Assembly: GCA_902790415.1 (NCBI GenBank)
Contig: CADARU010000001.1
Location: 50,071-114,070, forward strand
Direction: 5' to 3'
Length of the DNA stretch: 64,000 nt
Origin: an uncultured Pseudomonadota bacterium
GTDB lineage: Bacteria; Pseudomonadota; Alphaproteobacteria; Rs-D84
The notes under the pieces are model-generated. The model had not been told where the DNA came from. It searched no databases and saw only the letters and a program-made list of their open reading frames with translations. The translations under genes and the position numbers were made by a program. This document shows, in pieces, positions 7,009-39,398 of the stretch. Position 1 is the stretch's first letter; the number at the start of each line of letters is the position of its first letter.

Positions 7009-8393
7009 CTCATACTTTTATATGTTTTGGAATCAACAGCATCCCCGAACATATTTCTTTTTTGTTTTGTTAATGTTTCGTATTGGTCATTAGAAATTAT
7101 TCGCAACAAAAATCCTTCGTCATCGCGCGCACTTAGCACCGGCACCACGCGTTGTTCGGCAACACCGGTATCACGCAAAACCTGTTCAATAATGGCCAGA
7201 CGGCGCGCCGCCAATTTACGACCAGACGATGTTTTGGTAACAGATTCCGGAATTGCAACCTGAATTGCACGTTTTGGATTATTAACAACAATTCCCGCAT
7301 ATTCAGACAACAAATTATAATTTTCACGCGACAAGGCGGAATCCGCACTGCGGAACTTTATCTTTATTTCTAATGGGCGAATCTTGTCTTCTTCGGACAA
7401 ATCACGTGACGAGGTAAACCCTTCAAACGAAGAAGATATATCACTGGCCACATCGAATCTATCGTCCATTGAATACGTAGACAAGTGTTTATTTTCTGAT
7501 AAAAACGTTTTTCTAAATGCCTTGCGTAATTCGGCCGGCGATAATTTTGTCATATCATCACGAACCGCGTGAATATCATAATTTTTTGAACGCGCCGCAG
7601 TACGTACAACAGGCGATGCATCATCATTGCGCGACACCACCATGCGCGATAATTTTACATCATCATCCGAATCGTTTGATGCGATTTTCTGTGATACGGA
7701 TTCATGTTCAAAATCTTGGACATTATCGGCGCGCGCAACATCAAGTGTTTCGATTTCTTTGACAGATTTTTTATCAGAAACACTGGCCTCGGCACGACGT
7801 TGCAATTCAATCAAACGCGCAATTTGTGCATCCAGATTTGAAACGCGATTTGTTAATTCGGCAACTTCATCTTCCGGTACAGATACAGCGGGTGCCGTAG
7901 ATGCTTTCTTGGATTTTACAATTTTTCCAATTTTGGTTTTTTTGGTCCTTGGTGCGGATACAGATGAATATGCATCAGACACCGATACGCCAGACAAACT
8001 TTCTTCTGGCAAAATATCATTAGAAGAAATTAGCGAAAATTCATCCGCACGCGGCATACGCAAAGGCGTATCGTTCTTTGCCCACAAATCAGAACTGGGT
8101 TTATTTGGAATTAAATAATCAGAATTTAATGCGATTTTTTCACCGGTATCTTTTGAAACATTTGCACTTGTTTTTGGTGCAACAGATGTACGCGAAACAA
8201 CACGACGTGTTGCCTTTTTGGCAGCCGTATTTTTTGCGACCGTTTTTGTTGCAACAGGTGCATTTTGAACCGGCACACCAAATTCACTGCGTGCAGACAC
8301 AGCCGCCGCAGACACATTAACCGCCGGCAAACGCGCCCCCGCAAACGCCGGCAAACATAGGAAAATTCCCAACCAAGAAACTTTTGTATGCAT
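7002..8393 (-). CDS. Secreted, largely low-complexity or coiled-coil protein with an OmpA/MotB-like C-terminal domain; hypothetical
   Basis: Signal peptide (MHTKVSWLGIFLCLPAFAGA), long Ser/Lys/Asp-rich region, and a C-terminal segment ...SSGRKLAARRLAIIEQVLRDTGVAEQRVVPV that matches the OmpA_C pattern (LS..RA..V...L...GV...R). Every + strand ORF inside it is short. Confidence 0.45.
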   Translation of the reverse strand: MHTKVSWLGIFLCLPAFAGARLPAVNVSAAAVSARSEFGVPVQNAPVATKTVAKNTAAKKATRRVVSRTSVAPKTSANVSKDTGEKIALNSDYLIPNKPSSDLWAKNDTPLRMPRADEFSLISSNDILPEESLSGVSVSDAYSSVSAPRTKKTKIGKIVKSKKASTAPAVSVPEDEVAELTNRVSNLDAQIARLIELQRRAEASVSDKKSVKEIETLDVARADNVQDFEHESVSQKIASNDSDDDVKLSRMVVSRNDDASPVVRTAARSKNYDIHAVRDDMTKLSPAELRKAFRKTFLSENKHLSTYSMDDRFDVASDISSSFEGFTSSRDLSEEDKIRPLEIKIKFRSADSALSRENYNLLSEYAGIVVNNPKRAIQVAIPESVTKTSSGRKLAARRLAIIEQVLRDTGVAEQRVVPVLSARDDEGFLLRIISNDQYETLTKQKRNMFGDAVDSKTYKSMSW

Positions 8394-8485
8394 AATGTTC
8401 CTTTCCTTCCATCTGCATCATAGAACAAATCACGAATCGCACGCAAGGGGAAAATTAATATCCAAGAACTATAATTTACATTTTT

Positions 8486-9151
8486 TTAACGCAAACGATA
8501 GACCAATGGAACACCGGCACGCAACGCTTCCAACCGCGCCTTGTCCGCACCACGGTTTGCCAAATCTAATAAATATTTAGAAATTATTTGTGCGCGATAT
8601 TCAACAAAAGATGTATATAAATTACTGTTCACAACAATCGCATTTTCATGAATACCATGCGCTAATAATTCATATTTCTGACCACCATTATTATAAATTT
8701 CCCACTGGTCAGAATCACAACATGCCTGATTTACGCGAATCAAACTCTCGTGATAACGACGACGAATTGTTTCTTCGGGGACATCATGCCCCCCCAGCGC
8801 AACCCGTTGACGCACACGTGCGATATTTTGTTCAACCGATGGCAAATACACATATAAAAACATTATTTTATATCCATCGTTTCTTGCACGTGTTATAACC
8901 TTGTTATGAAAACCGCCCGCCAAAGTTGTTTCCAATGCAAAAGAATAATGCGCATCAAAAATATCATGCATATTTTGAATTAAAATACGTCCTGCCTGTA
9001 ATGAAGACACGTTTTGTTCGCGCGCAATATCATCACAATTTAAAAAATGTATTTCTGGGTTTTCACCAATCAATTCACGCGCCAGTGTTGTTTTACCACT
9101 GCCGTTCGCACCACCAATTAGATAAAAAATTTTGTCAGAATAAATATTCAT
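8486..9151 (-). CDS. Zeta-toxin-like / AAA_33 P-loop kinase
   Basis: Walker A (LIGGANGSGKTTLAREL) followed by ...HFLNCDDIARE, which resembles the zeta/PezT catalytic D-D region. The likely ATG start gives MNIYSDK; the track's upstream extension uses a TTG. It sits 38 nt downstream of the 541-aa repeat-protein gene on the same strand. Confidence 0.5.
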   Translation of the reverse strand: MNIYSDKIFYLIGGANGSGKTTLARELIGENPEIHFLNCDDIAREQNVSSLQAGRILIQNMHDIFDAHYSFALETTLAGGFHNKVITRARNDGYKIMFLYVYLPSVEQNIARVRQRVALGGHDVPEETIRRRYHESLIRVNQACCDSDQWEIYNNGGQKYELLAHGIHENAIVVNSNLYTSFVEYRAQIISKYLLDLANRGADKARLEALRAGVPLVYRLR

Positions 9152-9189
9152 GTCTGACAAAGTATAATACAAAAAATCACAAATGTCAA

Positions 9190-19883: not shown

Positions 19884-22800
19884 TTATTCCAAACTGGTCG
19901 TAAAGGAATCACCATAAGTACCGGCTTCATCCGGGCCAACATAGCAGACAATGTGGGAACCAACCTGGTCCAGCCATTCTTGTTGGGCCGCGGTCAATTC
20001 TTTATTATTCTTGGCTTTCAGTGCCTGGGTAACACCGATACCCGCAGCGACCGCACCACCCGTACCAACAATGCTAGATGCCAGCCATGTTCCAATCTTT
20101 GGTTTGTCACCATCATATCCTAATTTTTCTCTCACGGTATTAATGTGATTTTCAACATTAAAATTGCTGTCTACGGCGTTACACCCCTTGGCATTGCTGC
20201 AATGCACCGGTTTTTTCAATACAAACCCGTCAACAATGCCATCCGAAGTCAAAGTATAGCAGTCTTCATATTTATTATCTTCACCAGTTACTGCTTTCTT
20301 CGGTTCGCGTCCGCACAAGACATTACCAGCGTCTTTGAATCCCTCCCAATAATTAAGATTGGTTTCCAATTTTTTAACATCGCTGGATTTTGATACACCC
20401 GCTGTCGTATTCATCAAACCGCCCAAACCGGTTTTACGTTGCAACAGTTCGGTCAAACCATATCCGGCACCCGCCGCACCAATTGTTGATGCCGCAACCG
20501 CCCATTTTTGACCCGCGGTCAACTTGCCGTCTTCAGACAAACCTGTTTTCTTTGCGGCAACCGTTTTGCTAATTTTTTCTAATTCAGTTTGTGGTATCCA
20601 TGAACCGCATGTAATTGGATCACCAACCGCAAAATATGCCGTTGACCAATCTGTTCCATCGCGTAATTCTTTCTGGATATCCGGATCATCAGATTGAACC
20701 ATAACACGCACACGACAGAACGAACCATACAAATCGTTACTGGTTACAAATGCATTCGGTGTCAAACCATTGGTTGCATAGCTGTTCGGGACCTTGTTTG
20801 ATTTTAATTTCACCCATTGATATGTCGAACCCGTCATATCGTTACGTCCCATAATACCACCGTTGTTTTGTGCCAAGCACATTTGTTGTTCTTTGGTGAT
20901 TTTGGCATTATACTTTGCCTGGGCTTCTTTTTCGGCATCGGCCAAAACCTTTTGAAACAAGTTATCGGCCTGCATCTTGACCAGGTATTCTTGTTCTGGC
21001 ATGGTTACTTCAACCGAGAATAAGCACCCAAAATCGTTCATTGTATCACAAGGACCTGTTGCACCAATATCGGCAAACGACTTACACGTTGGTGTAGCAG
21101 ATGATTTATCAATACCACACTCACCTGTTGCAACGGTTTCAGCCTTGTATCCACCGCTGACCGCATCTGCCCATGTGCTGTGCGCCGCATCTGCACCACC
21201 CCATGTAACGGAATATTCATCACCTTTTGCAGCCTGTGATTTTGCAACCTCTACCCCAAAGTATTCTTCGCAGGCCTTGGCATTTACAACCGTTTCCGTA
21301 CACAAACCGGTTACAATAGTGAAATCCAAGACACCACCAACCTTGTTCATACTGTTGTTAAACGCGTTACTGGTATCGTCCGTACTGTATGTGGAACCCA
21401 TAACATCGGTTCTGCTGCGATAGCAATTTGTATAATCTGTTCCGCACATAGATTTAACGCAACTGGATACAGTATTGCGACATTGTTTCGCAAATTTATC
21501 CATTGCCGCATCATTATAAGATGCCGCCAATGTAGCATTTAACGAACCAACAACCGCCAACGGGTCTTTGAAACCGTCTTCGTATTGCGGGAACAAAATA
21601 CCAAATGCCGTCGAATCAGAATAACGATACGTTGAATCTTTGGATGCCGCATATTGACAATTCGCATCGGTGTTTACAACCGCTTCGCAAGCAGTTTTAA
21701 CTTCTTTGTATGCACGACCAGAATTAATACTGTTACCTTCGTTGTTACGAACCAATGCGTAACATACAGAACCAACACCGCCACCACAAGAACGCATCGC
21801 ACAAGATTTTATTGTTTCAACACACTTGTCTTTGGCCTTTTTATCAAACTTATCCGCCAACTGTTGAATTTTTGATGTCGTAACGGGATTGTTCATACGA
21901 GAATTATAGGCCTCGTTGAATATTTCACTGCGGTTATCTTCGTCTAGCAAATCCGCCGCCTTGGGCATTTGACCTTCGCCCAAGAATGTCGCATAACAAT
22001 ATTTGTTTGCACCAATTGTATCCAAACAAGCACCCTTGACATAACCTAAAACCTGGGACTTTTCAACAGTATCACCCGCCATCACACCAGAAATCAATGC
22101 AGATTTGTTAAGAGATGTCGCCGTTCCAGATGTTTGTGCATCCAATGCCTCGGCAATGTTGGCGGAAACTTTGTCAGAACCAACCATACATTTGAACGGG
22201 TTTTGTTCACACGCCGACATAAAGCATTGGTCAACAACCTTGTAACATGTGGAAACCGCGTTAACCGCCGCCAAATTCGCACCTTCGGTAATCATGATAC
22301 CAATACGACTGTCTGTGGCCGGTGTTGCCGCACGATTATCCGAACCGAATAATTCACGAACACCGTCCGCCTGGCAACGTGCCAAAGTGGATTCACAGAA
22401 AACCTTTTGCTTTTTAAATTCGGTATTATCGGTACACAATTCAAAGTCCGCGCCGCAAACACTTTCCTTCTTTAAGCATGATGTATATTTTTTAACACAA
22501 TTACTGGTATCCAAGCGGTTGCTAATCTCACTGGCCGCGATGAATTGACCCAAAATACTGCCCGCGGTGGGATAAATATATTCGCCATTGTTATCTTTGT
22601 TCGCCAAAGCGGTGATATTTGAATTACCAAACAGGGTGTTTACCGCCGCAGAAGAACACTGTAACAATGTGTTATTACAAATCGGTTTCTTGGCATAAAA
22701 CAATGTGTTGTTTGTACATTCTTCAAAATCAGAACCACATGCATCAGACCCGCGGATACATTCCGTATATGCGTCAACACATTCGTTTGCCGTCATCGTA

Positions 22801-23012
22801 GATTTATTTCCCGTCGTTGCGGTCCCCGTTGATGTCGTACCAATCGATGTGATTGTCGGCAAACGACGACTGCGTGCCGCAGCCATACCATTTGTCCCAG
22901 GGACAGTATAACTGACCCTTGATTCATTTGCCGGCGCAGTACGGGCCGCCCAAGACGCGTCAACCGCGCACAAAACCGCCATAAATCCAATGCAATTAGT
23001 CAAGAATTTCAT
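19884..23012 (-). CDS. Giant (1042 aa) cysteine-rich secreted protein with a C-terminal membrane anchor; hypothetical surface protein
   Basis: Signal peptide (MKFLTNCIGFMAVLCAVDASWA). Dozens of Cys, including a duplicated module C..YT.C......CG.DFE.CT.NT.F.K..C..TL..C....V..LFG at about aa 77-130 and 172-225. Two Gly-zipper hydrophobic segments near the C-terminus (WAVAASTIGAAGAGYGLTELLQRK and WLASSIVGTGGAVAAGIGVTQALKAK), then an acidic tail of about 40 aa. RBS AAAGGGGAAACGAGAATG and a TATAAT upstream. Confidence 0.65.
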   Translation of the reverse strand: MKFLTNCIGFMAVLCAVDASWAARTAPANESRVSYTVPGTNGMAAARSRRLPTITSIGTTSTGTATTGNKSTMTANECVDAYTECIRGSDACGSDFEECTNNTLFYAKKPICNNTLLQCSSAAVNTLFGNSNITALANKDNNGEYIYPTAGSILGQFIAASEISNRLDTSNCVKKYTSCLKKESVCGADFELCTDNTEFKKQKVFCESTLARCQADGVRELFGSDNRAATPATDSRIGIMITEGANLAAVNAVSTCYKVVDQCFMSACEQNPFKCMVGSDKVSANIAEALDAQTSGTATSLNKSALISGVMAGDTVEKSQVLGYVKGACLDTIGANKYCYATFLGEGQMPKAADLLDEDNRSEIFNEAYNSRMNNPVTTSKIQQLADKFDKKAKDKCVETIKSCAMRSCGGGVGSVCYALVRNNEGNSINSGRAYKEVKTACEAVVNTDANCQYAASKDSTYRYSDSTAFGILFPQYEDGFKDPLAVVGSLNATLAASYNDAAMDKFAKQCRNTVSSCVKSMCGTDYTNCYRSRTDVMGSTYSTDDTSNAFNNSMNKVGGVLDFTIVTGLCTETVVNAKACEEYFGVEVAKSQAAKGDEYSVTWGGADAAHSTWADAVSGGYKAETVATGECGIDKSSATPTCKSFADIGATGPCDTMNDFGCLFSVEVTMPEQEYLVKMQADNLFQKVLADAEKEAQAKYNAKITKEQQMCLAQNNGGIMGRNDMTGSTYQWVKLKSNKVPNSYATNGLTPNAFVTSNDLYGSFCRVRVMVQSDDPDIQKELRDGTDWSTAYFAVGDPITCGSWIPQTELEKISKTVAAKKTGLSEDGKLTAGQKWAVAASTIGAAGAGYGLTELLQRKTGLGGLMNTTAGVSKSSDVKKLETNLNYWEGFKDAGNVLCGREPKKAVTGEDNKYEDCYTLTSDGIVDGFVLKKPVHCSNAKGCNAVDSNFNVENHINTVREKLGYDGDKPKIGTWLASSIVGTGGAVAAGIGVTQALKAKNNKELTAAQQEWLDQVGSHIVCYVGPDEAGTYGDSFTTSLE

Positions 23013-23074
23013 TCTCGTTTCCCCTTTGGTATCAATTCATTATATCATAGGGTAGAAAAAAATAAAAGTAAAAA

Positions 23075-23160
23075 GTGGAGTGTGTTAGTGGGTAGTGGTA
23101 TCCAGAATAATTTTGTAAATACGAACAGATTCCAGATATCACTACCCACTTACACTAAAC
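23075..23160. repeat. Long imperfect inverted repeat (about 26-bp arms, 26-nt spacer) that is likely the rluD terminator
   Basis: gtggagtgtgttagtgggtagtggtatccag at 23075-23106 pairs with ccagatatcactacccacttacactaaac at 23132-23160. On the minus strand the stem is followed by a T-rich run, then the -10 and RBS of the downstream gene. Confidence 0.45.
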
Positions 23161-24099
23161 GCTAATCACTTCTCGTAATTCCAACATATCATCCGGCAAA
23201 TCCGTTTTGAAACGCATTTTTTCACCGGTTATCGGATGCGCAAATTCTAAAATTTGGGCGTGTAACATTTGTCCGTCATGTTCACGCAAAAATTCCAATA
23301 ATTCTGGATTTTTGACCGAACCCAAACGCGATGCACCACGACCATAAATCGGATCGCATAATACCGGAAAACCATGCGCCGACAAATGAACCCTGATTTG
23401 ATGGGTGCGGCCCGTTAACAACGTGCAACGAAACTCTGATATTCCACTGTGTGGCCAAATGTTTAGAACATCGACAACCGTATGCGCCGGCTTGCCCCCA
23501 GATTTTACCATCGTCATTTTTTGACGATTACGTGAAGAACGTGCAATGTTGCCGGTAATATCCGCCCCCGTCCAATTTGGTATTCCCCAAACAAATGCAA
23601 TATATTTTCGGGTCAAATCATGCGTAGAAAACATTTTTACCAAATTTCTATATGCCGCATCAGATTTTGCAAAAACCATAACACCACTGGTATCCTTGTC
23701 CAAACGATGAACAACGCCAGGACGGGTTTGTCCACCCAGCGCAGATAAATGTGTATGTGCCAAAATATTTTGAACCAATGTGCCGGTCTTGTTCCCCGCA
23801 GACGGATACATCACCACGCCACGCGGTTTGTTTATAACGATAATATCATCGTCTTCGTATAAAATATCTAAATCGAAATCAGACGAAATATTCTCTGATG
23901 CGATATCGGTCTGGGGCTGCGGAATTTCCACAGTGATTGTATCACCAACGCGCAACTTTTCCGCCACGCGCGCCGGCATGCCGTTACGCATTATGGTAAA
24001 ACGCTGGATTTCACTGCGTGAATAATCGGGCATAACGGACACCAAGAATTTATCTAACCTGATTCCTGCATGGTCCGCATCAACAATAAATTCTGACAT
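23155..24099 (-). CDS. rluD: RluA-family 23S rRNA pseudouridine synthase (RluD-like)
   Basis: S4-like N-terminus (MSEFIVDADHAGIRLDKFLV...) and the catalytic motif HRLDKDTSGVMVFAKS. Likely start at MSEF (24099); the longer track ORF overlaps the upstream gene. Confidence 0.8.
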   Translation of the reverse strand: MSEFIVDADHAGIRLDKFLVSVMPDYSRSEIQRFTIMRNGMPARVAEKLRVGDTITVEIPQPQTDIASENISSDFDLDILYEDDDIIVINKPRGVVMYPSAGNKTGTLVQNILAHTHLSALGGQTRPGVVHRLDKDTSGVMVFAKSDAAYRNLVKMFSTHDLTRKYIAFVWGIPNWTGADITGNIARSSRNRQKMTMVKSGGKPAHTVVDVLNIWPHSGISEFRCTLLTGRTHQIRVHLSAHGFPVLCDPIYGRGASRLGSVKNPELLEFLREHDGQMLHAQILEFAHPITGEKMRFKTDLPDDMLELREVISV

Positions 24100-24125
24100 T
24101 TTTAATCCGTTCCCATTGTTTAAGC

Positions 24126-24593
24126 CTATTTGTAATCGCGCCAATCTGGCCCACGCGTACACTTTGATAAATCTATCTTTAATTCACGTTCACCGGTAAC
24201 CGGGCATTTTAAAATACCGGTACTGACCGCCTGGTCTGCGTCACGCGTGGCGTTACGCCATGTAAAACTGATTTCTTGGGGGGCATGCACACACACCAAA
24301 CGCAACTTACCTTCGTCTTGTTTGTTTGGCCCAAGCCAGACGCGAACACTGTCCGCTTCACCATAACATGGGAAGGCATCCAAATAGTATAAAACCAATC
24401 CCTGTTTTACATCAGAATTCGTCCATGAAAACTTACCAGTAAATTGGCGCAACGGCAACCCAGTCAATGCCGCCCAATCGGTTGTTGTAGAAAAAATACT
24501 GACCCTCTTGATAACCGGCGGTGTTGGTGTCGGTGTATCGGCATACGCAACAAAAGGTGATACCATCAACATAAACGCCAAAATTTTCTTCAT
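24126..24593 (-). CDS. Hypothetical secreted protein (155 aa)
   Basis: Signal peptide (MKKILAFMLMVSPFVAYA), three Cys, no recognisable motif. Confidence 0.45.
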   Translation of the reverse strand: MKKILAFMLMVSPFVAYADTPTPTPPVIKRVSIFSTTTDWAALTGLPLRQFTGKFSWTNSDVKQGLVLYYLDAFPCYGEADSVRVWLGPNKQDEGKLRLVCVHAPQEISFTWRNATRDADQAVSTGILKCPVTGERELKIDLSKCTRGPDWRDYK

Positions 24594-25111
24594 CTTGTGC
24601 CCCCTGTGGTATTTTCCAATAATTCAACCGTAACCTTTTTTGCACCGGACATATCGCCCGACAAAGTATGCGAAAAACGAACCGATTGCCCCGCATCCAA
24701 CAATGTCGCAGATGGCATAAAACGTTGGCGCGAAATCGGTGCACCATTTGCATCATGTAAAACAACAATCAAATCCGGCAAACCATAAACATCTTCGGAA
24801 CGATTCGTAACCATACCATTTACAACAATTTTCGTTGTGCCATCATCCGCGGTAATCGTATCAACACGTTCAATGACCGCAACCAATGGTTTCTTGTTAG
24901 GATTATCACCGCGCGACGTAACAATAACCGCAACCGCAAAAACCGTTGCCGCCAACAATGCGCAAACCGCCGCAAAAAACATTAGCAACATACCACGACG
25001 TGATTGTGGCGCGCAATTCCACACGTTGCCGCACACCGCGCAACGAACCGGCCCAGTCGGTGCGGACGGCAAAGAATATTCTGTTTTACAAACATCACAT
25101 TTTACTTTCAT
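24590..25111 (-). CDS. Zinc-ribbon (MJ0042-type) plus DUF3426-like membrane protein
   Basis: The N-terminus has CDVC...C..CG (MKVKCDVCKTEYSLPSAPTGPVRCAVCGNVW). It has one TM helix (LLMFFAAVCALLAATVFAVAVIV) and a C-terminal beta-rich domain, an arrangement typical of zinc-ribbon/DUF3426 proteins. It overlaps the next gene by 4 nt, so both are in the pilin-like operon. Confidence 0.55.
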   Translation of the reverse strand: MKVKCDVCKTEYSLPSAPTGPVRCAVCGNVWNCAPQSRRGMLLMFFAAVCALLAATVFAVAVIVTSRGDNPNKKPLVAVIERVDTITADDGTTKIVVNGMVTNRSEDVYGLPDLIVVLHDANGAPISRQRFMPSATLLDAGQSVRFSHTLSGDMSGAKKVTVELLENTTGGTR

Positions 25112-25133
25112 ATCTTTATCCTTATACCATAAA

Positions 25134-26447
25134 TTATTGCAAATTCAACAAACGATATTTTTCCTGGACGGAATTTTGTATTTCGTGGATTGCGTTCATA
25201 TAATCAGACATTGTCGCGTTTTTATTTGCAACAACAGAACTGAATATACGCGTTGATGCCGAACCAGACACTGATTCACGACGTAAAACCCGACCCCCAA
25301 GGTCTGTTAATGTTGGTGAATTTATATCGTTCAAGTTCGCAATACCGTTTTTCACATCCCAAAAATAATTGGAATTTTCCGAATCTATGATTTTTTCACG
25401 AACCGTTAGGCGCGATGTCAAAGACCCCGCAAAACCAACCGTAACATACAGTGCGGTTATTCGCCCTTCGGTCATATCTAGTGTTTGATTTGCACGCAAA
25501 ATGGCAATGGAATTACTGTCGGTGGACAAACCACTTAACACCAAGTCATTAACCCACAGGTTATCTGTGGCCAGTTCCGAAAATTTACCGTATTCTGATA
25601 AATTGAATACATTTTTCGTAACGATATTTTTGGCATCACCACTAAGGGTGCCTGTTACGGTGGCAAGTCTGGTTTTATAATTTGAATCTAATATTGTTTG
25701 GTTATCAAATATTAAATCACGCGTATCTATATTGTTAACATTTAAAACTTCATCTATGCGCAGACCATTTGCATTTGCAAATGCAATGTTGGTAATATCG
25801 CGCATCCCCAGGTTTAACCCAGACAACATTGTCGCATCTGCCGCACTGTCAGACGGGACACGCCACAGATACAACGAATTATCACGATTCGCATTTGTTG
25901 TTTGAACAATACCAGAAGTCGCATCGATTCCCAAACTGGCCACATCTGTACGCCACGTACCAAACCCACCATAGGCACGCGCACCATCAACAAATCCAAT
26001 TTTGTCATCGCCCAAAGAAACTATTTCGCGCGTACGCATCGGTGTGATTTCCGAATCTGAATATACTATTACGCCTTGCAAGGCGGCCTGGTCGTTTTTA
26101 TCAACAGATTTTAAAATTCGTAACTGGTATTTATCAGACATTTCTTGGACAAAGGTTTCATCCAAGCCATAATCAGTTAAATCAGACAATTTTAACCTGA
26201 TTATATTTCGACCAATTGTTGTTAACATTTTATCTTTGTTATCGGCAATATAACCCTCTAACGCAGATTTAATCTTGTCCATTTGTCGTGTAACGCGTAT
26301 ATTTTCGGCACGCAAAATCGCACGTTGTTGATACTGATAAACAAAAGGCAACAATGTACCCGCCAATGCAATGGTTAATAAAAATTCCATCAACACTGTG
26401 CCGCGACAATTATTAGATTCAAAAAATTTTCGTTTTATTTTTTTCAT
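25134..26447 (-). CDS. Large (437 aa) protein with a TadE/prepilin-like N-terminus, paralog A
   Basis: The N-terminus MKKIKRKFFESNNCRG|TVLMEFLLTIALAGTLLPF has a positively charged leader, Gly, Glu at +5, a hydrophobic helix and Pro at about +19, as in TadE-like pseudopilins. It shares LSDL..YGL and L.L.GM(R/G)DI.N motifs with the two upstream paralogs. Confidence 0.55.
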   Translation of the reverse strand: MKKIKRKFFESNNCRGTVLMEFLLTIALAGTLLPFVYQYQQRAILRAENIRVTRQMDKIKSALEGYIADNKDKMLTTIGRNIIRLKLSDLTDYGLDETFVQEMSDKYQLRILKSVDKNDQAALQGVIVYSDSEITPMRTREIVSLGDDKIGFVDGARAYGGFGTWRTDVASLGIDATSGIVQTTNANRDNSLYLWRVPSDSAADATMLSGLNLGMRDITNIAFANANGLRIDEVLNVNNIDTRDLIFDNQTILDSNYKTRLATVTGTLSGDAKNIVTKNVFNLSEYGKFSELATDNLWVNDLVLSGLSTDSNSIAILRANQTLDMTEGRITALYVTVGFAGSLTSRLTVREKIIDSENSNYFWDVKNGIANLNDINSPTLTDLGGRVLRRESVSGSASTRIFSSVVANKNATMSDYMNAIHEIQNSVQEKYRLLNLQ

Positions 26448-27730
26448 TTTTCTACTTTGCCCGGTTGTATATCAATTATATGTAACTGAGGTGCGCTGGT
26501 TAAACCGGTGCGCCAATCGCTGTTAAACATATTTTTAAAATCTTCTTTGTGCGGCATTGATGGTATGGATGCGCGTGTTAATTTAAATTCCTTGAACGCA
26601 GGTGGCGTATAAGACGGAAATACCCACGAACCGAATCTGATTGGCGGATTGGTTGATACTAACAATTCGCCAGATACGGTCAAACCAAAATCTTGATAGA
26701 AAACAATTTCATCGGTATGAATATACGGTGTATAAACAGTCCCGGCATTTATCCCGGTAAAGGCACCTATTGTTTTTAACGAATCAGATTTTATAACCAA
26801 ATCCCGCCCAACATTTACGGATTTTCCAACTTTGACCCTATCGGCGGTTATACGACCATTTGTTGTAAAACCTGATGCATTTAATGTTCGCACCTGAATA
26901 TTTCTAAACCCACTGATATCACCCATCGCACGCAATATGTCAATGTTAACATCATCGCCACGTATTTCCGCGCCGCCAGAAAAATAAACGTTTTCAGAAT
27001 TTATTTCATTTGCATCTACAAACATTGCATTAACATTGGAAACCTTTAAAGATTTTCCAATTGCACCACCAACATTATAAATATCATTTCCACCCATGTT
27101 TAAATCGCGTTCCATCATATTTAACTTTTCTGTATCCGAAGAAGCGCGATGTAAAAATTTTTCACTGTCAACATCGGAAACATCGCGCGATATTTTATAA
27201 ACCAAACGCCCCGGTTCAAAATCCGGTGATGTAACCGCCCACGAATCGCCATACGCAACCCCATCCATACCAATAATCGCCGCATCGCCACCGATGTTTT
27301 TTGCAATCTGTGCCATGCGTTTTGTTGGCATATCAAAATCAAACATTAAATACACATCAACCACAGAACCATTTTTTATTGAATACTTGTCAATAAATCC
27401 GGCGGTTGCAGAACCAGAAAATGCCGCCAATTCTTCATCAGACAATTTGATTTGTGCCTGTTGTGGCCACAGGTCTTGATTCATACGAACAAAATTCAAC
27501 ACATCGTTTCGTAAACTAATTATATCATTTGCGATTGCCAAATTATGCATCGAATGTGTCGCATCGGTTATCATAGAATACGTAAAAGGTGCCGCAACCG
27601 CAACAATGACAAAAGCCAATAAAACCTCTACCAAACCGCCACCACGTTGGGCGCAAACAGATTCCTTGGTTGGACGAGAAAAAATTCTAAATACACCCAC
27701 TTTTTCCCTCCTTGATACAAATCGCCGCAT
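26444..27730 (-). CDS. Large (428 aa) protein with a TadE/prepilin-like N-terminus, paralog B
   Basis: ...CAQRG|GGLVEVLLAFVIVAVAAPF (Glu at +5, Pro after the helix). It shares motifs with paralogs A and C (KLSDEEL..., RDLNMGGNDIYNVGGAIG). It overlaps paralog A by 4 nt and paralog C by about 44 nt; the exact start is uncertain. Confidence 0.5.
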   Translation of the reverse strand: MRRFVSRREKVGVFRIFSRPTKESVCAQRGGGLVEVLLAFVIVAVAAPFTYSMITDATHSMHNLAIANDIISLRNDVLNFVRMNQDLWPQQAQIKLSDEELAAFSGSATAGFIDKYSIKNGSVVDVYLMFDFDMPTKRMAQIAKNIGGDAAIIGMDGVAYGDSWAVTSPDFEPGRLVYKISRDVSDVDSEKFLHRASSDTEKLNMMERDLNMGGNDIYNVGGAIGKSLKVSNVNAMFVDANEINSENVYFSGGAEIRGDDVNIDILRAMGDISGFRNIQVRTLNASGFTTNGRITADRVKVGKSVNVGRDLVIKSDSLKTIGAFTGINAGTVYTPYIHTDEIVFYQDFGLTVSGELLVSTNPPIRFGSWVFPSYTPPAFKEFKLTRASIPSMPHKEDFKNMFNSDWRTGLTSAPQLHIIDIQPGKVEK

Positions 27731-29060
27731 TTATTCTGGATTCTAGACGTTGCCAAAACACATACTGACATACAATATATTGCGCCAACGATTTTTGGTT
27801 ATATGTGTTTCCATATGATTCTATGATTGTTTTACACGTAACCGTATCAGATGAATCTTGGGTTGGGTATGCCAAAATAGAAAACGCATTATTATCAACC
27901 CCATCAATTAACACATCAGGCAGCATAGATGTCCCGGCCGGCCGCACATCTAAAATCGCCGCACCAGATGCACCACGTTGCAACCCACCAGATGTTTGGT
28001 CACGCAATGTAACATTGGACGAATATAAATACGCGGTGTCTATGCCACTGGATGTGTTATAAGATAAATCATCTTCGTCAATATAAACATCTTGACCACG
28101 CGTTAAATTTATAAAAGAACTGACATCCAAACGTTCGGTACTAAAACTAATACGACTGGTTATGACATTACCACGAACATCCCATTTTTCAGGACCATAA
28201 AATCCAGTTCGGCCTTCACTCATATTCAACGCATCAACCGATGCATCGACCGCCAACATATTTCCTGTATCACCAAATTTAGAAACCGTTTTAGCAAACA
28301 CATCATTGGTGTTTAATGTACCGCGCACCACCGACAACGATGATTTTCCAGATTCATTTTGAAATATCGTCTTGTCCGCATTTATTTGTAGAATTTTATT
28401 TCTGACGTTACGACCCGCCTCGGTTCCAAACACAGACAATTTGTCAAAAATACCGGTATCAAAATTCGCACGTCTGGCGAAAATATTTTCTGTGTTAACA
28501 AAATTAAACCCCCCCATATCTAAATCGGTCAGGAATTCCGCAACATCAGAATTACGTTCATTACGCCGAACAATATCAGAATAGTTTTCCGCCAACGGTA
28601 TACCTATTTCGATAACGTCTGAATCTGATGCCGGGTTATACGATGCATAAAAGCCAATTCGCCGCGCCAATTCTGCACGTTGCATTTTGGTTAATTCACC
28701 ACCCGCAACACGTACCAACGCGTAAACATCCGTTTCGTTTTTTATAATCACCACAGATATATCTTGGCCCAGTGGGGTTCGTGCAATAAATCCCAACGGT
28801 AACCCATACGGTTCCAACAAATCAGATAAATTATTCCCCGACACAACCGTTGTGTCATAAGGTAACGCATCAGAGTTTTCCAAGACATACAAACGTGCCG
28901 CATTTTTAACCGTTTCCAGTTGGTGTGTTGTGGCATACATTTGCGCCCCAATATCACGCGATGCCAACCGCCGGGTAAAGAAAGGCATGAAAGCAAAAAC
29001 CAATGTTAATGCCAATAACGCCTGTAATAAAAAATTTCCCCTCTCGTGATGCAAAAACAT
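27687..29060 (-). CDS. Large (457 aa) protein with a pilin-like hydrophobic N-terminus, paralog C
   Basis: MFLHHERG|NFLLQALLALTLVFAFMPFF (Gln at +5 instead of Glu). It shares LSDLLEPYGL and TDLDMGGFNFVNTENI motifs with paralogs A and B. First gene of the operon, with a divergent promoter region at 29061-29217. Confidence 0.5.
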   Translation of the reverse strand: MFLHHERGNFLLQALLALTLVFAFMPFFTRRLASRDIGAQMYATTHQLETVKNAARLYVLENSDALPYDTTVVSGNNLSDLLEPYGLPLGFIARTPLGQDISVVIIKNETDVYALVRVAGGELTKMQRAELARRIGFYASYNPASDSDVIEIGIPLAENYSDIVRRNERNSDVAEFLTDLDMGGFNFVNTENIFARRANFDTGIFDKLSVFGTEAGRNVRNKILQINADKTIFQNESGKSSLSVVRGTLNTNDVFAKTVSKFGDTGNMLAVDASVDALNMSEGRTGFYGPEKWDVRGNVITSRISFSTERLDVSSFINLTRGQDVYIDEDDLSYNTSSGIDTAYLYSSNVTLRDQTSGGLQRGASGAAILDVRPAGTSMLPDVLIDGVDNNAFSILAYPTQDSSDTVTCKTIIESYGNTYNQKSLAQYIVCQYVFWQRLESRINAAICIKEGKSGCI

Positions 29061-29217
29061 CCCCCTTTTGCATATATATAGTCAAAGCATAGCAATAGAA
29101 AAAAAATATTGCAATCGCTTTTAAGATGCTTTATCATCTGTTTCGTTTAGGTGGTTGGCACAAAATACATACGAATTTTTACCAACGGGTTATTTCCATA
29201 AAAACAAAAGAAATAAA

Positions 29218-29541
29218 ATGCAAAACAAGAAAAATCAAACATCGGTTGGCATGATGATTCAACGCTGTCATAAATGGCGGCAAAAAAGAAAACAATACAT
29301 TGACCAGGCACGTCAAACCGCGGACGAAATCGAACGTGAACGCCTGTTACAGTTGGCGGAACACTATGGCCGCATTGTAAATGCCGAACAATCAAAAATA
29401 GATTCTTCACGCGACCCCAAGGATAAAACCGCTGTTGAATCTGCCCCAGAGAACGCACCAACCGAAGATGCATCTGATACGGGCGAAAATACCGAAGATG
29501 AAGAAATCGGCTTTCCTGATTTCATCACGAATTTGAAATAA
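29218..29541 (+). CDS. DUF4167-like small basic/acidic protein
   Basis: Arg/Lys-rich N-terminus, ...ERLLQLAEHYGRIVNAEQ (close to the DUF4167 motif ...AE.Y.QHAEHY.RI) and an acidic C-terminal tail. The start is uncertain (29155, 29218 or 29251). The antisense 108-aa ORF has no features. Confidence 0.5.
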   Translation: MQNKKNQTSVGMMIQRCHKWRQKRKQYIDQARQTADEIERERLLQLAEHYGRIVNAEQSKIDSSRDPKDKTAVESAPENAPTEDASDTGENTEDEEIGFPDFITNLK

Positions 29542-29619
29542 AAAACGGCATAAATCACACTTTTTAATTCTTGAAATTTAATATAGGTTTGCTATTCTTG
29601 AACACAAAGGAAGTTCTAG

Positions 29620-31152: not shown

Positions 31153-31169
31153 AACACATGGGGCGAGAG

Positions 31170-31625
31170 ATGAAAACAGAATCCGGACGTTCTTTGATTG
31201 AAATTATTGGTGTGTTGGCCATTACCGCGGTTATGACGGCGGCGACGATTGCGATGTATAACACCATTCGTAAAAATCAAACGCATACAATCGCATCGGC
31301 CGAACTGCGTGAAGTGGCAAAAAACATAAAATTATTATTTGATATGCGTGGCGATTATACCGGGGTTTCGGTGGACTGGCTGGTCAAGGCCGGCGCATTA
31401 AAAAACGACAAGGCCCCCTTGGGAGAATCTTGGAGTATAGAGCCAACATCAGATGCAAGTGGTTTTGTTATAAACCTGCGTGGGTTGTCGCACAGTAATT
31501 GCGATTTCTTGGCGGTATCGGCCCCCAGTTGGGCATCATCCATTATCGTAAACGGTCAAGAAAACGAATCTTCGCCGATTTGTTTTTCAGGTAACACGAA
31601 CAATATTACATTCATTGCACAATAG
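31170..31625 (+). CDS. Type IV pilin / pseudopilin-like protein (about 151 aa)
   Basis: MKTESG|RSLIEIIGVLAITAVMTAATIAMY is a class III signal peptide-like N-terminus with Glu at +5. A C-terminal Cys pair (NCDFLAV...SSPICF) resembles a pilin D-region. RBS GAGAG 3 nt upstream. It lies 18 nt after dnaX. Confidence 0.55.
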   Translation: MKTESGRSLIEIIGVLAITAVMTAATIAMYNTIRKNQTHTIASAELREVAKNIKLLFDMRGDYTGVSVDWLVKAGALKNDKAPLGESWSIEPTSDASGFVINLRGLSHSNCDFLAVSAPSWASSIIVNGQENESSPICFSGNTNNITFIAQ

Positions 31626-35250: not shown

Positions 35251-35868
35251 CTACCATGTTGGTGCATGGTCGCCTTCTTTGACGATTGGTTTTTCATCTT
35301 CCCATACGGTCAATCCTGTTTTAACATCGGTCAATGCCAATTGCAGGTAATATTCTACACGCGTATCAACAGATGAAAACCATCCAGATTGCAATTTCAA
35401 ATTGCGCTGTATCATTTTTCCAGACATCGACATATTTGGTGCAATCAAAGTACCCTGAGACACAATAGTTGATGCATCGTATTCACTGTTTCCACGCGTG
35501 GCGCGAACGTTATGCGTTGTTTCGTCTTGGGCAGATTTACCATTTTGAAACGAACTGGAAACCTTGGCACGACCGGAATTTACCAATGTTTTACGAATCT
35601 TTTGTGTTAAAATATCGGTATCAAAACGTTGCATAGTGTCGTTTTTGATTTCACCCATCGCAATAACAGGATTCTTAATTTTTGCAAAAGCACCACTGTT
35701 AATCATAGATTTTGTCATTTCTTCGGCGGTTGCGGTCCAATCACGATATTCCAATTCCATAACATTTTGCATCGCCGCAACTTCTTTTTCGTTATTCAGG
35801 TCAACAACACGTGTTTCACCGCATCCAATCAATGCCGCACATAATGCAACCGGAAATAATTTTTTCAT
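35251..35868 (-). CDS. LpoB-like lipoprotein (penicillin-binding protein activator family)
   Basis: Lipobox (ALIGCG). YRDWTATAEEMTKSMINSGAF...NDTMQRFDTDILTQKIRKTLVNSGRAKVSS and ...EYYLQLALTDVKTGLTVWEDEK are collinear with the conserved blocks of the E. coli LpoB C-terminal domain. Confidence 0.55.
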   Translation of the reverse strand: MKKLFPVALCAALIGCGETRVVDLNNEKEVAAMQNVMELEYRDWTATAEEMTKSMINSGAFAKIKNPVIAMGEIKNDTMQRFDTDILTQKIRKTLVNSGRAKVSSSFQNGKSAQDETTHNVRATRGNSEYDASTIVSQGTLIAPNMSMSGKMIQRNLKLQSGWFSSVDTRVEYYLQLALTDVKTGLTVWEDEKPIVKEGDHAPTW

Positions 35869-35886: not shown

Positions 35887-37131
35887 TTATTTTAACTTTA
35901 TTACCTTGGTATCTTCGTTATTTGGTCCGACACGAACATAAACCAAATAATTAGACCCATCATAAGGTGTATTCATTTTCATAACCAGATTACCACTGCC
36001 ACGCAATTCAATCAAGCCACTTTTATTATTTTCAACCCGCAACACCGATATTGTTTTGGGCAGGGTTGGCCACGTACGAACCTCGGCCGCAGTGGTTACT
36101 TCTGAATAAATCGTTGACAAGATTCCCATCAAAGGTGCGGATGCACTGCGTGAATTATACATGGATGTTTGTAATGCGGTACGCCCTGTTGCGGCGGCCA
36201 ACGCACGCAAAGAATCGTTCGTTCTGTATTCTTTGTATTCGGTCATAAACATTGCATCAACATCAGCCAATTTTTGTGCGCCCGATATATTTGTAAAATT
36301 ATTCGTAAACACCGGTTCTGACATCGCAATAGTAACAATAGACATACCATCACCCATAAACACAGGCACCGACACGCGCCGTTCATGCAGTTTTGGCGCA
36401 AAACCATCTTCGATAAAAACCCAAACTGTATTTTTCGGTGTAATATGTTTTTCCGCCAATGACAAATCGGTGGCAACAAAGGTGTTGTTTGGACTCATCC
36501 CATTTGCGCGTGCCAAATATGTTTTTGCATCACTAAAATCACCGTTGTTTAGGAAATAAATCCCCGACAAATACATTAATGCCGGATTCATAATATCTGT
36601 ATATGCTGCCCACATAGAATTTTCAGATTCTAACTTTTTGTTCAATTCTGCATTTTCAATAATTTTGCTTTGGTTTGATTCAATCGTATTTTTATATGCC
36701 AACGACATATCTTGCTGGCGGCCATAAGATTGATTAATAATTACGCGCGCATCGTTATAACGCCCGGTTGCCAATGCCGCCCATAACTGATAATAAGACA
36801 CAAATAACGCGTCCATCATGTACGGTTTATATTCGTTAACAGATGCACCAAATACCAAAGATGCGGCTTCACGTGAAAAACTGCCCCCGGTGGTATCTAT
36901 GTTACGCCGATTAAATTCTTCATAGGCCGCATCTGCGCCACTGTAATCATCATTATGGAACAATGTATCGGCCGTAATTAACAAGTCCAAATTATTTTGT
37001 GATGAAAAATTTGTATCCGTGGTGGCGGCTGTCATATAATTTTCCCGCACAGAATCAAGACGCGCCTCGGTCGTGGCGGCACACGCAGATAACAAAACAC
37101 ATACAGTTAAAAATTTTATAGAACGAAACAT
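35887..37131 (-). CDS. Hypothetical lipoprotein (414 aa), co-transcribed with the T4CP and LpoB-like genes
   Basis: Lipobox (VLLSACAA). No recognisable catalytic motif. The start lies 3 nt after the stop of the VirD4-like gene. Confidence 0.5.
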   Translation of the reverse strand: MFRSIKFLTVCVLLSACAATTEARLDSVRENYMTAATTDTNFSSQNNLDLLITADTLFHNDDYSGADAAYEEFNRRNIDTTGGSFSREAASLVFGASVNEYKPYMMDALFVSYYQLWAALATGRYNDARVIINQSYGRQQDMSLAYKNTIESNQSKIIENAELNKKLESENSMWAAYTDIMNPALMYLSGIYFLNNGDFSDAKTYLARANGMSPNNTFVATDLSLAEKHITPKNTVWVFIEDGFAPKLHERRVSVPVFMGDGMSIVTIAMSEPVFTNNFTNISGAQKLADVDAMFMTEYKEYRTNDSLRALAAATGRTALQTSMYNSRSASAPLMGILSTIYSEVTTAAEVRTWPTLPKTISVLRVENNKSGLIELRGSGNLVMKMNTPYDGSNYLVYVRVGPNNEDTKVIKLK

Positions 37132-37133
37132 AA

Positions 37134-39398
37134 CTATTGCTTTGCCACCGGTGTCAATTCACGCAATTCTTTTGCCTGGGGGTCAAAGAATTTCGGCGTA
37201 CCTGCATATTCCAATATTGCATGATGGCTTGGTACCAAAAATTCCGGCAACGGGGAACAGCGACCCATTTTTACATAACTAGACATACGTTCATCATTAA
37301 ACGACATCCTGATGTCGGCCTTAATCGGGCGATGATACCAACCTTCGTAAAGAATAATTGCTTCGGATGTCTTGCTTTTTGGACCAACTGTTTTTAATTG
37401 CATAATATCAAATTCGGAAAACAACGGTTCGTCTTTCTTTTCTTCCTCTTCTTTTTCTTTGCCATCCGGCCCTTTTACTTTTTTCTTTTTGATTGTCGTT
37501 TTCTTTGGCATCATTTCCGCGAAACGTTTCGCCGATTCAATATCATTTTGACGCAAAATAATCTTGGCCGCCGTTGTTGATATAATGGTAGATGCCGCAT
37601 CATTACCGTATTTTTCAGAAATCTGGTGTAAATCCTGACCAATCAACAGATAAGATATCTTCTGTCCACGTCCAACGTCTGGCCCCTGGATAACAGCGGT
37701 CATTTTTTGCATCTTGGGCATTTCGTCTAACAAGAACAATACCGGATACGGTCCCATTTTTTGTCCGTTACGTCCAACCTTGTCTGGTGGATTTGCCAAC
37801 AAAAAGTTTGACATTGTTTCAACAAACATTGATGTAATTGGATTCAAGGCCTTGGCATCAACCATGTTAATAGACAAATATACCGTTGCCGGCTTTATTT
37901 TGCCATCGGTCGGGTCAACAATTCCACGCATATCGGAAAAATGAAAGTCAGAATGACTGGTCCGGTTACGTACGGCGGCATTTCTGAATATGGCCAGACC
38001 CGTCAAAATCGTTGATAAAATAGAGCCACGTTCGGTTGACGGGGTGTTGGCTAACTTGGTTAATTCTGCAACCGCACGATTTGAATAAGAAAAGGAACGT
38101 GCTTCGTTAACCGCCGATTCCAACCAGTCCTTCATCGGGTCGGCCATCATAACAGATTGGTCCCCTTGGCGTTGACGTTCCGCCAATTCATTGGCAACGG
38201 CAATTTGCGCTTCGGTAATCCAATCCAACATCAAAGAATATGATGCCTCTTTGCCCAACCATGCCTGGGGAATATTTGCCCAGGAACCAACATGAACGTA
38301 ATTCATGGCATTTAATTGCTTGTTTTTAATAAGCGCCATCGCCGCAAACGCATTTGGGTCATTTACCATTGAAAAATAGTAATCCGATAAAATCGCCGCA
38401 TCTTCATCATCAAATTGCCCCGATTGCAACCGGGAATAGAAATAATCATCGGCCTTGGCACGTTCAATTTTTGAAATAATAAATTGGACAAAACCCGCCA
38501 AACCGGCACGCCCCGCCTGGGTCCAGTGGGGGTCGGCACTGCTGCCTTCGGCATCAGGAACCAAAACATCGCACATATAATCAACGTACAATTCGCGTTG
38601 TTCCGGACTGGCCGGGACATGTTCGGGCGAAAGTGGATTCCACGATGGATAATAAATACCCTTGTCTGGTTCATCTTGGCCACCCCAATCCATAATAAAC
38701 ACCGGTCCAACATGCTTTGAACGATATGCACTGGATTTTGTATCCAATTCAGGTTTGGGGTCGTTAATAATCATCGAAACATCGGTGCATTCAAATATAG
38801 TCGGCAAACACACACCTTCGGTTTTACCGGTTCCCGGAGGTGCCAAACACAAAACAGATGTTGTTTTAGGTAACTTTAAAACCTTGTTCTTGAAATAGCC
38901 CAACACAATGATAATACCATCAAACAGACCCATGGCCTTGACATCTTTTTCGTTTGCGGTACGTCCAGATTTTTTATCATAAATATCTTTACCGTTGGGG
39001 TCAAATTCGTCCATTAACGATTTATCAGTTAACAGGAAATAAGCAATCATCGGGAACAACGGTACCATACAGGCAAAATCAGGATGCATTACACAACGAA
39101 TAAACCAATTCGGCACCCCCGCCAAGACCGAAAAACCCAATGTTGAAAACATTTGTGATAAATACACCTTGGTCCAAACCCATGTTGCGGGCGACCAGCC
39201 ATACCGCCACAAATGTTCAAAAACAAACGAAATTCCAAATGCCAATGCACAAACAATCCAAACCGTTGTCAACCAACGTACCCGCCAAAACGCCTGTGCA
39301 ATCGGTATTTGTAAATGTTCAGTATAAGCACTGGACTTAAAAATATTAAGCCCTTTACTGTCCTTGCCTGCGGATAAAATCTTGAACTTGTCTGGCAT
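37134..39398 (-). CDS. Type IV secretion coupling protein (VirD4/TraG/DotL family ATPase)
   Basis: N-terminal TM helices. Walker A in TraG-like context ...SVLCLAPPGTGKTEGVCLPTIFECTDVSMIINDPKPEL (compare TraG ...APTRSGKGVGLVIPNLL...D.KGE). Walker B VLFLLDEMPKM. Lys/Glu-rich C-terminal tract (KKKKVKGPDGKEKEEEEKKDE). Confidence 0.6.
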   Translation of the reverse strand: MPDKFKILSAGKDSKGLNIFKSSAYTEHLQIPIAQAFWRVRWLTTVWIVCALAFGISFVFEHLWRYGWSPATWVWTKVYLSQMFSTLGFSVLAGVPNWFIRCVMHPDFACMVPLFPMIAYFLLTDKSLMDEFDPNGKDIYDKKSGRTANEKDVKAMGLFDGIIIVLGYFKNKVLKLPKTTSVLCLAPPGTGKTEGVCLPTIFECTDVSMIINDPKPELDTKSSAYRSKHVGPVFIMDWGGQDEPDKGIYYPSWNPLSPEHVPASPEQRELYVDYMCDVLVPDAEGSSADPHWTQAGRAGLAGFVQFIISKIERAKADDYFYSRLQSGQFDDEDAAILSDYYFSMVNDPNAFAAMALIKNKQLNAMNYVHVGSWANIPQAWLGKEASYSLMLDWITEAQIAVANELAERQRQGDQSVMMADPMKDWLESAVNEARSFSYSNRAVAELTKLANTPSTERGSILSTILTGLAIFRNAAVRNRTSHSDFHFSDMRGIVDPTDGKIKPATVYLSINMVDAKALNPITSMFVETMSNFLLANPPDKVGRNGQKMGPYPVLFLLDEMPKMQKMTAVIQGPDVGRGQKISYLLIGQDLHQISEKYGNDAASTIISTTAAKIILRQNDIESAKRFAEMMPKKTTIKKKKVKGPDGKEKEEEEKKDEPLFSEFDIMQLKTVGPKSKTSEAIILYEGWYHRPIKADIRMSFNDERMSSYVKMGRCSPLPEFLVPSHHAILEYAGTPKFFDPQAKELRELTPVAKQ

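Follow-up and report, generated by a model that had tools for sequence, protein, structure and literature searches.

A Conserved Chromosomal Triplet of PilV-Like Modular Pilin Genes in Uncultured Gut Alphaproteobacteria of the Order Rs-D84

Gene Organization of the Triplet

The DNA analyzed here, called the window below, is a stretch of 64,000 nucleotides from an uncultured bacterium of the alphaproteobacterial lineage Rs-D84 (GenBank assembly GCA_902790415.1, contig CADARU010000001.1, positions 50,071 to 114,070 of the forward strand), and coordinates given without another source refer to it. Its minus strand encodes three adjacent large proteins, designated A, B and C, that have prepilin-like N-termini and appear to be distant relatives of PilV, a minor pilin that serves as the tip adhesin of type IVb thin pili. 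The host lineage, ‘Candidatus Enterousia’ (order Rs-D84), comprises uncultured gut and rumen Alphaproteobacteria with genomes of 0.75-1.0 Mb that are devoid of flagella, the tricarboxylic acid cycle and respiration, and a partner-dependent lifestyle was proposed for them. Members of Rs-D84/Enterousia occur widely in the gut and the rumen; with genomes of about 0.9 Mb they are without respiration and standard transporters, and they are thought to live at the expense of partner cells (PMC12306168). The three genes are:

27687..29060, minus strand: A, a 457-amino-acid PilV-like modular pilin with the leader MFLHHERG and Gln at position +5
26444..27700, minus strand: B, a 418-amino-acid PilV-like modular pilin with a 20-residue leader ending in RG and Glu at +5
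25134..26447, minus strand: C, a 437-amino-acid PilV-like modular pilin with a 16-residue leader ending in RG and Glu at +5

An initial annotation, made from the sequence alone, had reported three tandem open reading frames at this position, and these were recovered on the minus strand with the lengths listed. The longest open reading frame of B spans 26444-27730 (minus strand). The most likely start is a GTG codon at 27700 that has the Shine-Dalgarno sequence AAGGAGGG in front of it and yields 418 amino acids with a leader of 20 residues. With this start the A and B genes overlap by 14 nt, and B and C overlap through ATGA. Translational coupling had been claimed both among the three genes and with an adjacent zinc-ribbon gene, here designated D; it holds within the triplet, whereas C and D are separated by a gap of 22 nt. 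A 25-nt inverted repeat (92% complementary) has one arm in A (27842-27866) and the other in the divergent DUF4167 gene (29458-29482), and may be a product of chance.

Prepilin Signature and Paralogy

The N-termini of the A, B and C families share one register, with Gly at -1 (usually after Arg), a conserved residue at +5 and Pro at +18. A PilFind-like rule for class III signal sequences selected 119 of 120 orthologues of C, 116 of 120 of A and 117 of 120 of B (352 of 360 together), which bears out the leader, Gly, hydrophobic helix and Glu or Gln at +5 described earlier for all three; the conserved Pro reported with them is also real, though it lies at +18 and not at about +19. Among the orthologues tested, the +5 residue is always Glu in C, Glu with one exception in B and always Gln in A. 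When genes were classified with family hidden Markov models, Gln5 was confined to A-type members (27/27). In the wider superfamily the same rule selected 117 of 150 representatives, many of the remaining ones being short and apparently partial. These 117 have E, Q or D at +5 without exception, and all but one of them (116) have their first Pro at +18. A search with the B family retrieved 852 matches with conserved G, E(+5) and P(+18). Each of the three proteins has a single hydrophobic segment, which is N-terminal, and the leader of A is short (about 6-8 residues). The C-terminus of A contains four invariant Cys and is therefore consistent with an extracytoplasmic location.

Across the window, the PilFind-like rule selected A, B, C, a gene for a small canonical pilin described below, and four weak or non-coding matches. 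The +1 residues of the triplet are T, G or N, not F or M, and the N-methylation model (PF07963/IPR012902) gave only a sub-threshold match for B (E = 0.23; 11.6 bits against a cut-off of 21.2) and no match for A and C. The prepilin-like signature of A, B and C is not a chance resemblance.

The three proteins were also said to be paralogs. Pairwise BLASTP comparisons among them are weak (2e-7, 7e-7 and 3e-3), and the relationship becomes clear when profiles built from 47-49 orthologues per family are aligned with hhalign. B and C then match with 98% probability over 374 columns (E = 2e-13), A and B with 96% (E = 6e-9) and A and C with 95% (E = 7e-8), so the profile comparison establishes paralogy as claimed. 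The shared D-L-N/D-M-G-G motif, noticed earlier as (D/T)L(N/D)MGG, is also real and aligns with the motif IDMNNNNLNN of PilV.

Relationship to PilV

Searches with a merged profile of A, B and C retrieved 1,271 clusters (50% identity) at E≤1e-3, of which 415 were found at E≤1e-10. Many members of this superfamily are 500-650 amino acids long, and those with a named source are from alphaproteobacterial metagenome-assembled genomes (MAGs). The only Pfam family that recurred among 102 representatives was Shufflon_N (PF04917), the constant region of PilV, which matched seven of them (best E = 2.8e-11). One member of a distant triplet matched Shufflon_N over residues 39-225 (187 residues, E = 5.2e-6) and another distant member matched outright; the window copies of A, B and C gave no Shufflon_N match at E≤1. 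The families were compared with a genuine PilV of 451 amino acids (leader ending in KIHRG, mature start MVSIE), which is encoded on a Serratia plasmid together with a complete type IVb operon. The C profile aligned with this protein over 223 columns with 90.8% probability (E = 1.2e-6) and the B profile with 72% (E = 3.4e-5), and in a tblastn search of the Enterousia loci PilV retrieved C orthologues at 3.5e-10. From these comparisons A, B and C seem to form a divergent chromosomal branch of PilV, related to it by a distant homology that lies below the curated Pfam threshold.

The initial annotation had assigned the proteins to the TadE/TadF type, and this assignment is rejected. TadE (PF07811) and Tad (PF13400) did not match the window A, B and C at E≤1, nor any of the 102 superfamily representatives at E≤0.01, and the affinities of the triplet are with PilV. 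It had also pointed to an anomalous size. The proteins are indeed large compared with TadE/TadF, but for PilV-like pilins a length close to that of the 451-residue reference is no anomaly.

PilV functions as an adhesin, with a conserved N-terminal region that is built into the pilus and a C-terminal domain that binds surface structures of other bacteria, also in the gut (PMC9045228). A, B and C resemble the PilV of the type IVb thin pili of IncI plasmids (R64, TP114) in size class and in an N-terminus with Arg-Gly followed by xxxxE. The first ~240 residues are distantly homologous, including the motifs AYGxW, LYRY/YLWR and (I/L)(D/N)(M/L), and both consist of a pilin module followed by a C-terminal module. 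There are also clear differences. PilV is plasmid-borne and encoded by a single gene with a DNA-inversion shufflon, whereas the triplet is chromosomal, belongs to the core genome and consists of three fixed tandem paralogs, one of which (A) is without Glu5. The C-terminal ends of PilV are variable and those of the triplet are conserved. Finally, the PilV gene closes a type IVb pil operon (pilL-V), and none of those machinery genes were found in the window or in the related triplet loci. A shufflon at the triplet was considered and rejected, since no recurring inverted-repeat family of the sfx type was detected in 23000-29600 and no recombinase gene in the neighborhood.

Predicted Fold

AlphaFold2 models of A and C were built on family alignments and are partly confident, with a mean predicted local distance difference test (pLDDT) score of 63 for C and 57 for A. 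The first ~150-180 residues of both models reach a pLDDT of 70-87 and form a helix of 50-57 residues followed by an alpha/beta domain. The top five structural matches of the C model were PilM, the pilin of colonization factor antigen III (CFA/III), EpsI, GspI and TcpB, and it also matched XcpV, a tip pseudopilin of the type II secretion system (T2SS). TcpB and CofB were among the best matches of both models. The match scores are modest, and the match lists are coherent across the two independent models. Profile searches of the A, B and C families against PDB sequences gave sub-significant matches to pilin N-terminal helices or none. The middle parts of A and C are modelled with low confidence, and the weak matches to beta-helix adhesins in that region are unreliable. 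The models thus predict a pilin fold for A and C, in which an antiparallel beta-sheet packs against a long N-terminal alpha-helix. The predicted architecture consists of the leader, helix alpha1 and a pilin head in the first ~150-240 residues, followed by a beta-rich module of ~200-300 residues; large “modular” pilins are widespread (PMC8179133). The signature, the predicted fold and the homology to PilV together identify A, B and C as type IV pilin-class proteins.

Conservation of the Triplet

The initial annotation had proposed that conservation of the triplet be checked in related genomes, and this was done in 80 species loci retrieved for Enterousia and in five more distant loci. A, B, C, D and the next two genes, E and an RluD-type pseudouridine synthase gene, are collinear in 80/80 Enterousia loci, and a gene for a 1042-amino-acid protein follows in 71/80. 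Relatives of C are encoded by 212 or more species genomes. The gene order is also the same in two Rs-D84 lineages that are more divergent and have larger proteins (531/455/653 and 526/403/612 amino acids). Three loci that are still more distant, all from alphaproteobacterial MAGs, encode exactly three paralogs as well (487/423/544, 469/455/489 and 488/479/431 amino acids):

L091, positions 5447-9809: triplet in GCA_016936785.1
L094, positions 7220-11470: triplet in a JGI/NCBI contig
L096, positions 374-4587: triplet in GCA_031549365.1

These most distant triplets adjoin RecO or elongation factor P (EF-P) genes and are without D, E or the large protein; the triplet is therefore a conserved unit in its own right. 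All triplet loci are situated among housekeeping genes. By the family models, divergent lineages retain the arrangement A(Q5)-B(E5)-C(E5). In L091, the most distant triplet classified in this way, the first gene retains Glu5 and is also the one that matches Shufflon_N, which suggests that this is the ancestral state.

Companion Genes and Genomic Neighborhood

The minus-strand gene string runs in the order A, B, C, D, E, the RluD-type gene and the 1042-amino-acid gene, and a further pilin gene lies on the other strand of the window. The features concerned are:

24590..25111, minus strand: D, a 173-amino-acid ZitP-like bitopic protein with a cytoplasmic CxxC...CxxC zinc ribbon, one transmembrane segment and a periplasmic DUF3426 domain
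24126..24593, minus strand: E, a 155-amino-acid exported protein with a Sec signal peptide, a Pro-rich N-terminal linker, a conserved RVSIFSTTTDW domain and four Cys
23155..24162, minus strand: RluD-type pseudouridine synthase (PF00849), collinear in 80/80 loci
19884..23012, minus strand: 1042-amino-acid Cys-rich exported protein with a Sec signal peptide, the final gene before the terminator
19841..19865, minus strand: hairpin resembling an intrinsic terminator, with an 11-bp stem that includes 6 GC pairs and with a T-run, just 3' of the 1042-amino-acid gene
31158..31625, plus strand: 155-amino-acid canonical type IV pilin with the leader MGREMKTESG, then RSLIEIIGVLAI (Glu at +5), and with Cys115 and Cys142 as a pair towards the C-terminus

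The hairpin is the only strong terminator-like structure of the gene string and is likely the end of the transcription unit. Within it, the gap between the RluD-type and 1042-amino-acid genes contains a near-perfect palindrome (23082-23155; 36-nt arms, 78% complementary, 2-nt spacer) that could act as an attenuator or an internal regulatory site of the operon.

Protein D has the architecture of ZitP, i.e., an N-terminal zinc ribbon, one transmembrane segment (residues 39-68) and a C-terminal DUF3426 domain. It is present in 80/80 loci, and its CxxC pairs are conserved in the orthologues. The window copy scores just under the Pfam cut-offs for DUF3426 and Zn_ribbon_4, and orthologues exceed both (38.1 vs 27.7 bits and 32.3 vs 30.3 bits, respectively). 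The likeness to ZitP of Caulobacter crescentus is one of architecture, and both proteins are alphaproteobacterial. D has 173 amino acids whereas ZitP has 311; ZitP binds PopZ and serves the Tad pilus through CpaM, a role known from Caulobacter only. The periplasmic DUF3426 domain of Caulobacter ZitP is needed for pilus assembly (PMC5182063).

The gene for E overlaps that for D through ATGA and is likewise present in 80/80 loci; the protein matches no known family. The RluD-type gene is probably a co-transcribed housekeeping passenger. The 1042-amino-acid protein contains 44 Cys in repeated C-x6-C-x6-C-x6-C modules, and no relative was found in Pfam, NCBIfam or PDB. Its gene has counterparts of 1211-1239 amino acids at the same position in distant lineages. 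It is possible that this protein is a partner or cargo of the pilin complex.

The canonical pilin gene at 31158-31625 had been overlooked in the earlier inventory of pilus genes in the window, which was right about the absence of machinery genes. It was detected in 54/80 loci with the class III motif conserved in every one, and the protein matches N-terminal helices of pilins in PDB weakly (E = 0.02). The gene always lies between dnaX and a gene for an OmpA-family lipoprotein, in the spot after dnaX where ybaB/recR usually sit, and the dnaX-pilin-OmpA-OmpH block is intact wherever it was detected (54/80 species loci). We regard the 155-amino-acid pilin as a candidate major subunit.

Further features were noted in the surroundings. 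A complete ribosomal RNA operon (14283-19227, minus strand; 16S 17724-19227, tRNA 17530-17603, 23S 14478-17227, 5S 14283-14397) follows directly downstream of the terminator of the 1042-amino-acid gene, and the metagenome contigs of the strain end at about this position. The region from ~8486 to 14000 has a low GC content (35-37% vs ~43%) and many small open reading frames without a family match. It encodes a Zeta_toxin-like protein (8486-9172) and unannotated proteins of 463 and 541 amino acids, forms a 13.6-kb contig of its own in one of the metagenome assemblies, and is possibly a mobile or defence island. On the other side of the triplet, a gene for a TraG/VirD4-type coupling protein of type IV secretion systems (T4SS) is located at 37134-39398 (minus strand), adjoined by a gene for a 414-amino-acid protein similar to tetratricopeptide repeat proteins (35887-37131) and an LpoB-like gene (35251-35868). 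No other T4SS genes are adjacent to it, which suggests a scattered T4SS as in Rickettsiales.

Proposed Role and Alternative Explanations

In type IV filaments, the core minor pilins form a tip-located complex that is capped by a subunit without Glu5, and assembly is begun by this complex and runs from tip to base (PMC10191384). In type IVb systems fewer and larger minor pilins replace the four-pilin complex, an example being the CofB trimer at the tip that binds the secreted protein CofJ (PMC10191384). TcpB from the toxin-coregulated pilus of Vibrio cholerae and CofB of CFA/III of enterotoxigenic Escherichia coli resemble A, B and C in that a pilin module precedes beta-rich modules. They form three-subunit tip complexes that initiate assembly and bind the co-encoded, Sec-exported proteins TcpF and CofJ. 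Both are homotrimers of one product that keeps Glu5, whereas the triplet consists of three diverged paralogs, one with Gln5; moreover, they have no detectable sequence similarity to the triplet, and the tcp and cof machinery genes are adjacent whereas those of the triplet are not. GspK-GspI-GspJ of the T2SS and PilHIJK of type IVa pili consist of mostly small subunits (GspI has about 120 amino acids) that are not close mutual paralogs. No sequence relationship between them and the triplet was detected, and the T2SS and type IVa machineries are not encoded in the window.

By analogy with these systems, our proposal, to which we give an even chance of being correct, is that the three proteins assemble into a heterotrimer that tips or primes a type IV filament and is capped by A. 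A prepilin peptidase would cleave the three proteins after the invariant Gly. The mature proteins, made in roughly equal amounts from the overlapping genes, would then associate by way of the alpha1 helices and form, in the inner membrane, a staggered heterotrimer with A, the sole Gln5 member, on top as the cap; A could do without Glu5 because there would be no subunit above it for a Glu5 salt bridge. The complex would prime, and subsequently tip, a thin type IV filament or a short pseudopilus, the shaft of which would probably be built from the canonical 155-amino-acid pilin encoded 2 kb away. The ZitP-like protein D may position or license assembly from the inner membrane. The C-terminal modules displayed at the tip would either recognize some conserved ligand of a partner cell or carry E and the Cys-rich 1042-amino-acid protein. 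An adhesion role would fit the lifestyle, as Enterousia is proposed to be partner-dependent and PilV binds other gut bacteria. The conservation of the C-terminal halves and the missing shufflon imply that any ligand would be a conserved one, and the role may also be structural or lie in export.

Several observations weigh against this proposal. Pfam and NCBIfam scans of the window A, B and C gave nothing above threshold, and the A profile matched the genuine PilV weakly (15%). The C-terminal halves of A, B and C are as conserved as their N-terminal halves, which sets them apart from the variable receptor-binding ends of PilV; such uniform conservation is compatible with an adhesin and equally with a structural component. 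Analogy with the systems above is the sole basis for the heterotrimer and its position at the tip. The only genomic survey of the order assigns type IV pili to another lineage and not to Rs-D84. Neither the 64-kb window nor 1.78 Mb of related loci yielded a gene for a prepilin peptidase, an extension ATPase, a platform protein or a secretin, and this total corresponds to well under 10% of a genome because the loci largely cover the same region in different species. The search used regular expressions for signature motifs over the window and 88 loci and tblastn with a full type IVb reference set; in the window, Pfam was also run on all unannotated genes and polytopic membrane open reading frames were screened, which yielded VIT1 and FtsX only. 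A marginal peptidase match (tblastn, E = 0.077) was rejected as spurious since it lies antisense within dnaX. The earlier statement that the window contains no secretin, ATPase or prepilin peptidase is thereby confirmed, and a divergent pilus or pseudopilus-like apparatus, as suggested at the time, is still the best reading, one that is unproven as the assembly machinery was not found. The strict conservation of Gly(-1) and of the +5 residue argues, at the level of sequence, that a peptidase and polymerization exist.

Two alternatives keep the pilin-class assignment and differ on what the proteins build. All type IV machinery may have been lost, leaving A, B and C as orphan pilins that are anchored in the inner membrane, possibly uncleaved, and reach into the periplasm for an envelope or cell-contact role without polymerizing, perhaps organized at a pole by the ZitP-like protein. 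The lack of machinery in all sequence examined and the survey without pili for Rs-D84 point in this direction, as do the extremely reduced genomes, the housekeeping surroundings of all triplet loci and the uniform conservation of the proteins. We nevertheless consider it unlikely, since the cleavage-site Gly and the buried Glu or Gln at +5 are invariant in more than 1,000 sequence clusters, which is hard to reconcile with a mere anchor in the membrane; these bacteria also keep a small canonical pilin that has this signature and a Cys pair at its end, and the absence of machinery is drawn from the small fraction of a genome given above. The other alternative, which we judge rather unlikely, is a short periplasmic pseudopilus, in which A, B, C and the small pilin would act as a T2SS-like piston or stub that pushes E and the 1042-amino-acid protein through the outer membrane, with adhesion not being the primary function. 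The C model does match the T2SS tip pseudopilins EpsI, GspI and XcpV, the GspK-I-J tip trimer has a cap without Glu5, two Sec-dependent exported proteins are encoded in the same gene string, which has a single terminator at its end, TcpF and CofJ are indeed exported by minor pilins of type IVb systems, and the even conservation of the C-terminal halves suits a machine part. Yet the window and the related loci yielded neither a secretin nor another part of a T2SS, the sequences are akin to the pilus adhesin PilV and not to GspH-K, and the most distant triplets lack both E and the large protein. An unlikely variant, to which we attach slightly less weight still, is that Enterousia and its relatives are without any type IV filament machinery and keep four pilin-class genes under strong constraint, which extends to the cleavage-site Gly and the +5 residue, the PilV-like trio working in a new way that is independent of such machinery. 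It may then be a membrane-anchored heterotrimeric contact organ, positioned by the ZitP-like protein, or a tip assembled by another system, e.g., a T4SS with the coupling protein encoded 8 kb away; in both cases it would serve attachment to and exchange with the partner cell that the reduced bacterium depends on. A true absence of the machinery would make the system much more unusual.

The remaining alternatives concern the identity of the proteins. Pseudopilins of the TadE/TadF/TadG type would belong to a Tad (type IVc) pilus, the usual pilus type in Alphaproteobacteria, and the host lineage, the resemblance of D to a protein that serves the Caulobacter Tad/Cpa pilus and the E-F pair at +5/+6 of C, as found in TadE-like proteins, would be in line with this. 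It is very improbable in view of the missing TadE/Tad matches and the recurrent link to Shufflon_N/PilV. The best structural matches are type IVb pilins, no tad genes are present in the window, and the companion small pilin has 155 amino acids, a globular head and a Cys pair, unlike a Flp pilin of 50-70 amino acids. That A, B and C are ordinary secreted or membrane-anchored proteins with a chance resemblance to prepilins could be argued from the missing above-threshold family matches of the window proteins and from their +1 residues (T, G, N), which are atypical of classical pilins. This explanation is refuted for practical purposes and its probability negligible, as the register of G(-1), E/Q(+5) and P(+18) recurs in three paralog families and in 117 of 150 distant representatives, the A and C models give a pilin fold, and the homology to PilV is significant.

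Implications for Enterousia and the PilV-Like Family

What is new here is a fixed, chromosomal and translationally coupled PilV-like triplet with a Gln5 first member, accompanied in Rs-D84 by a ZitP-like gene as its next neighbor. Enterousia devotes about 4 kb of a small genome to this universally conserved trio, besides the small pilin and the ZitP-like gene. Together they are the first concrete candidate for a cell-contact apparatus of Rs-D84/Enterousia. The trio would match, as a naturally occurring heterotrimer, the homotrimeric tip of the TcpB/CofB kind, with a built-in cap without Glu5, and the model in which a tip complex primes assembly would become testable in a minimal system. Lastly, the superfamily of more than 1,200 clusters is covered by no Pfam or NCBIfam model and its members are annotated as hypothetical proteins, so defining it as a family would improve the annotation of many gut MAGs.

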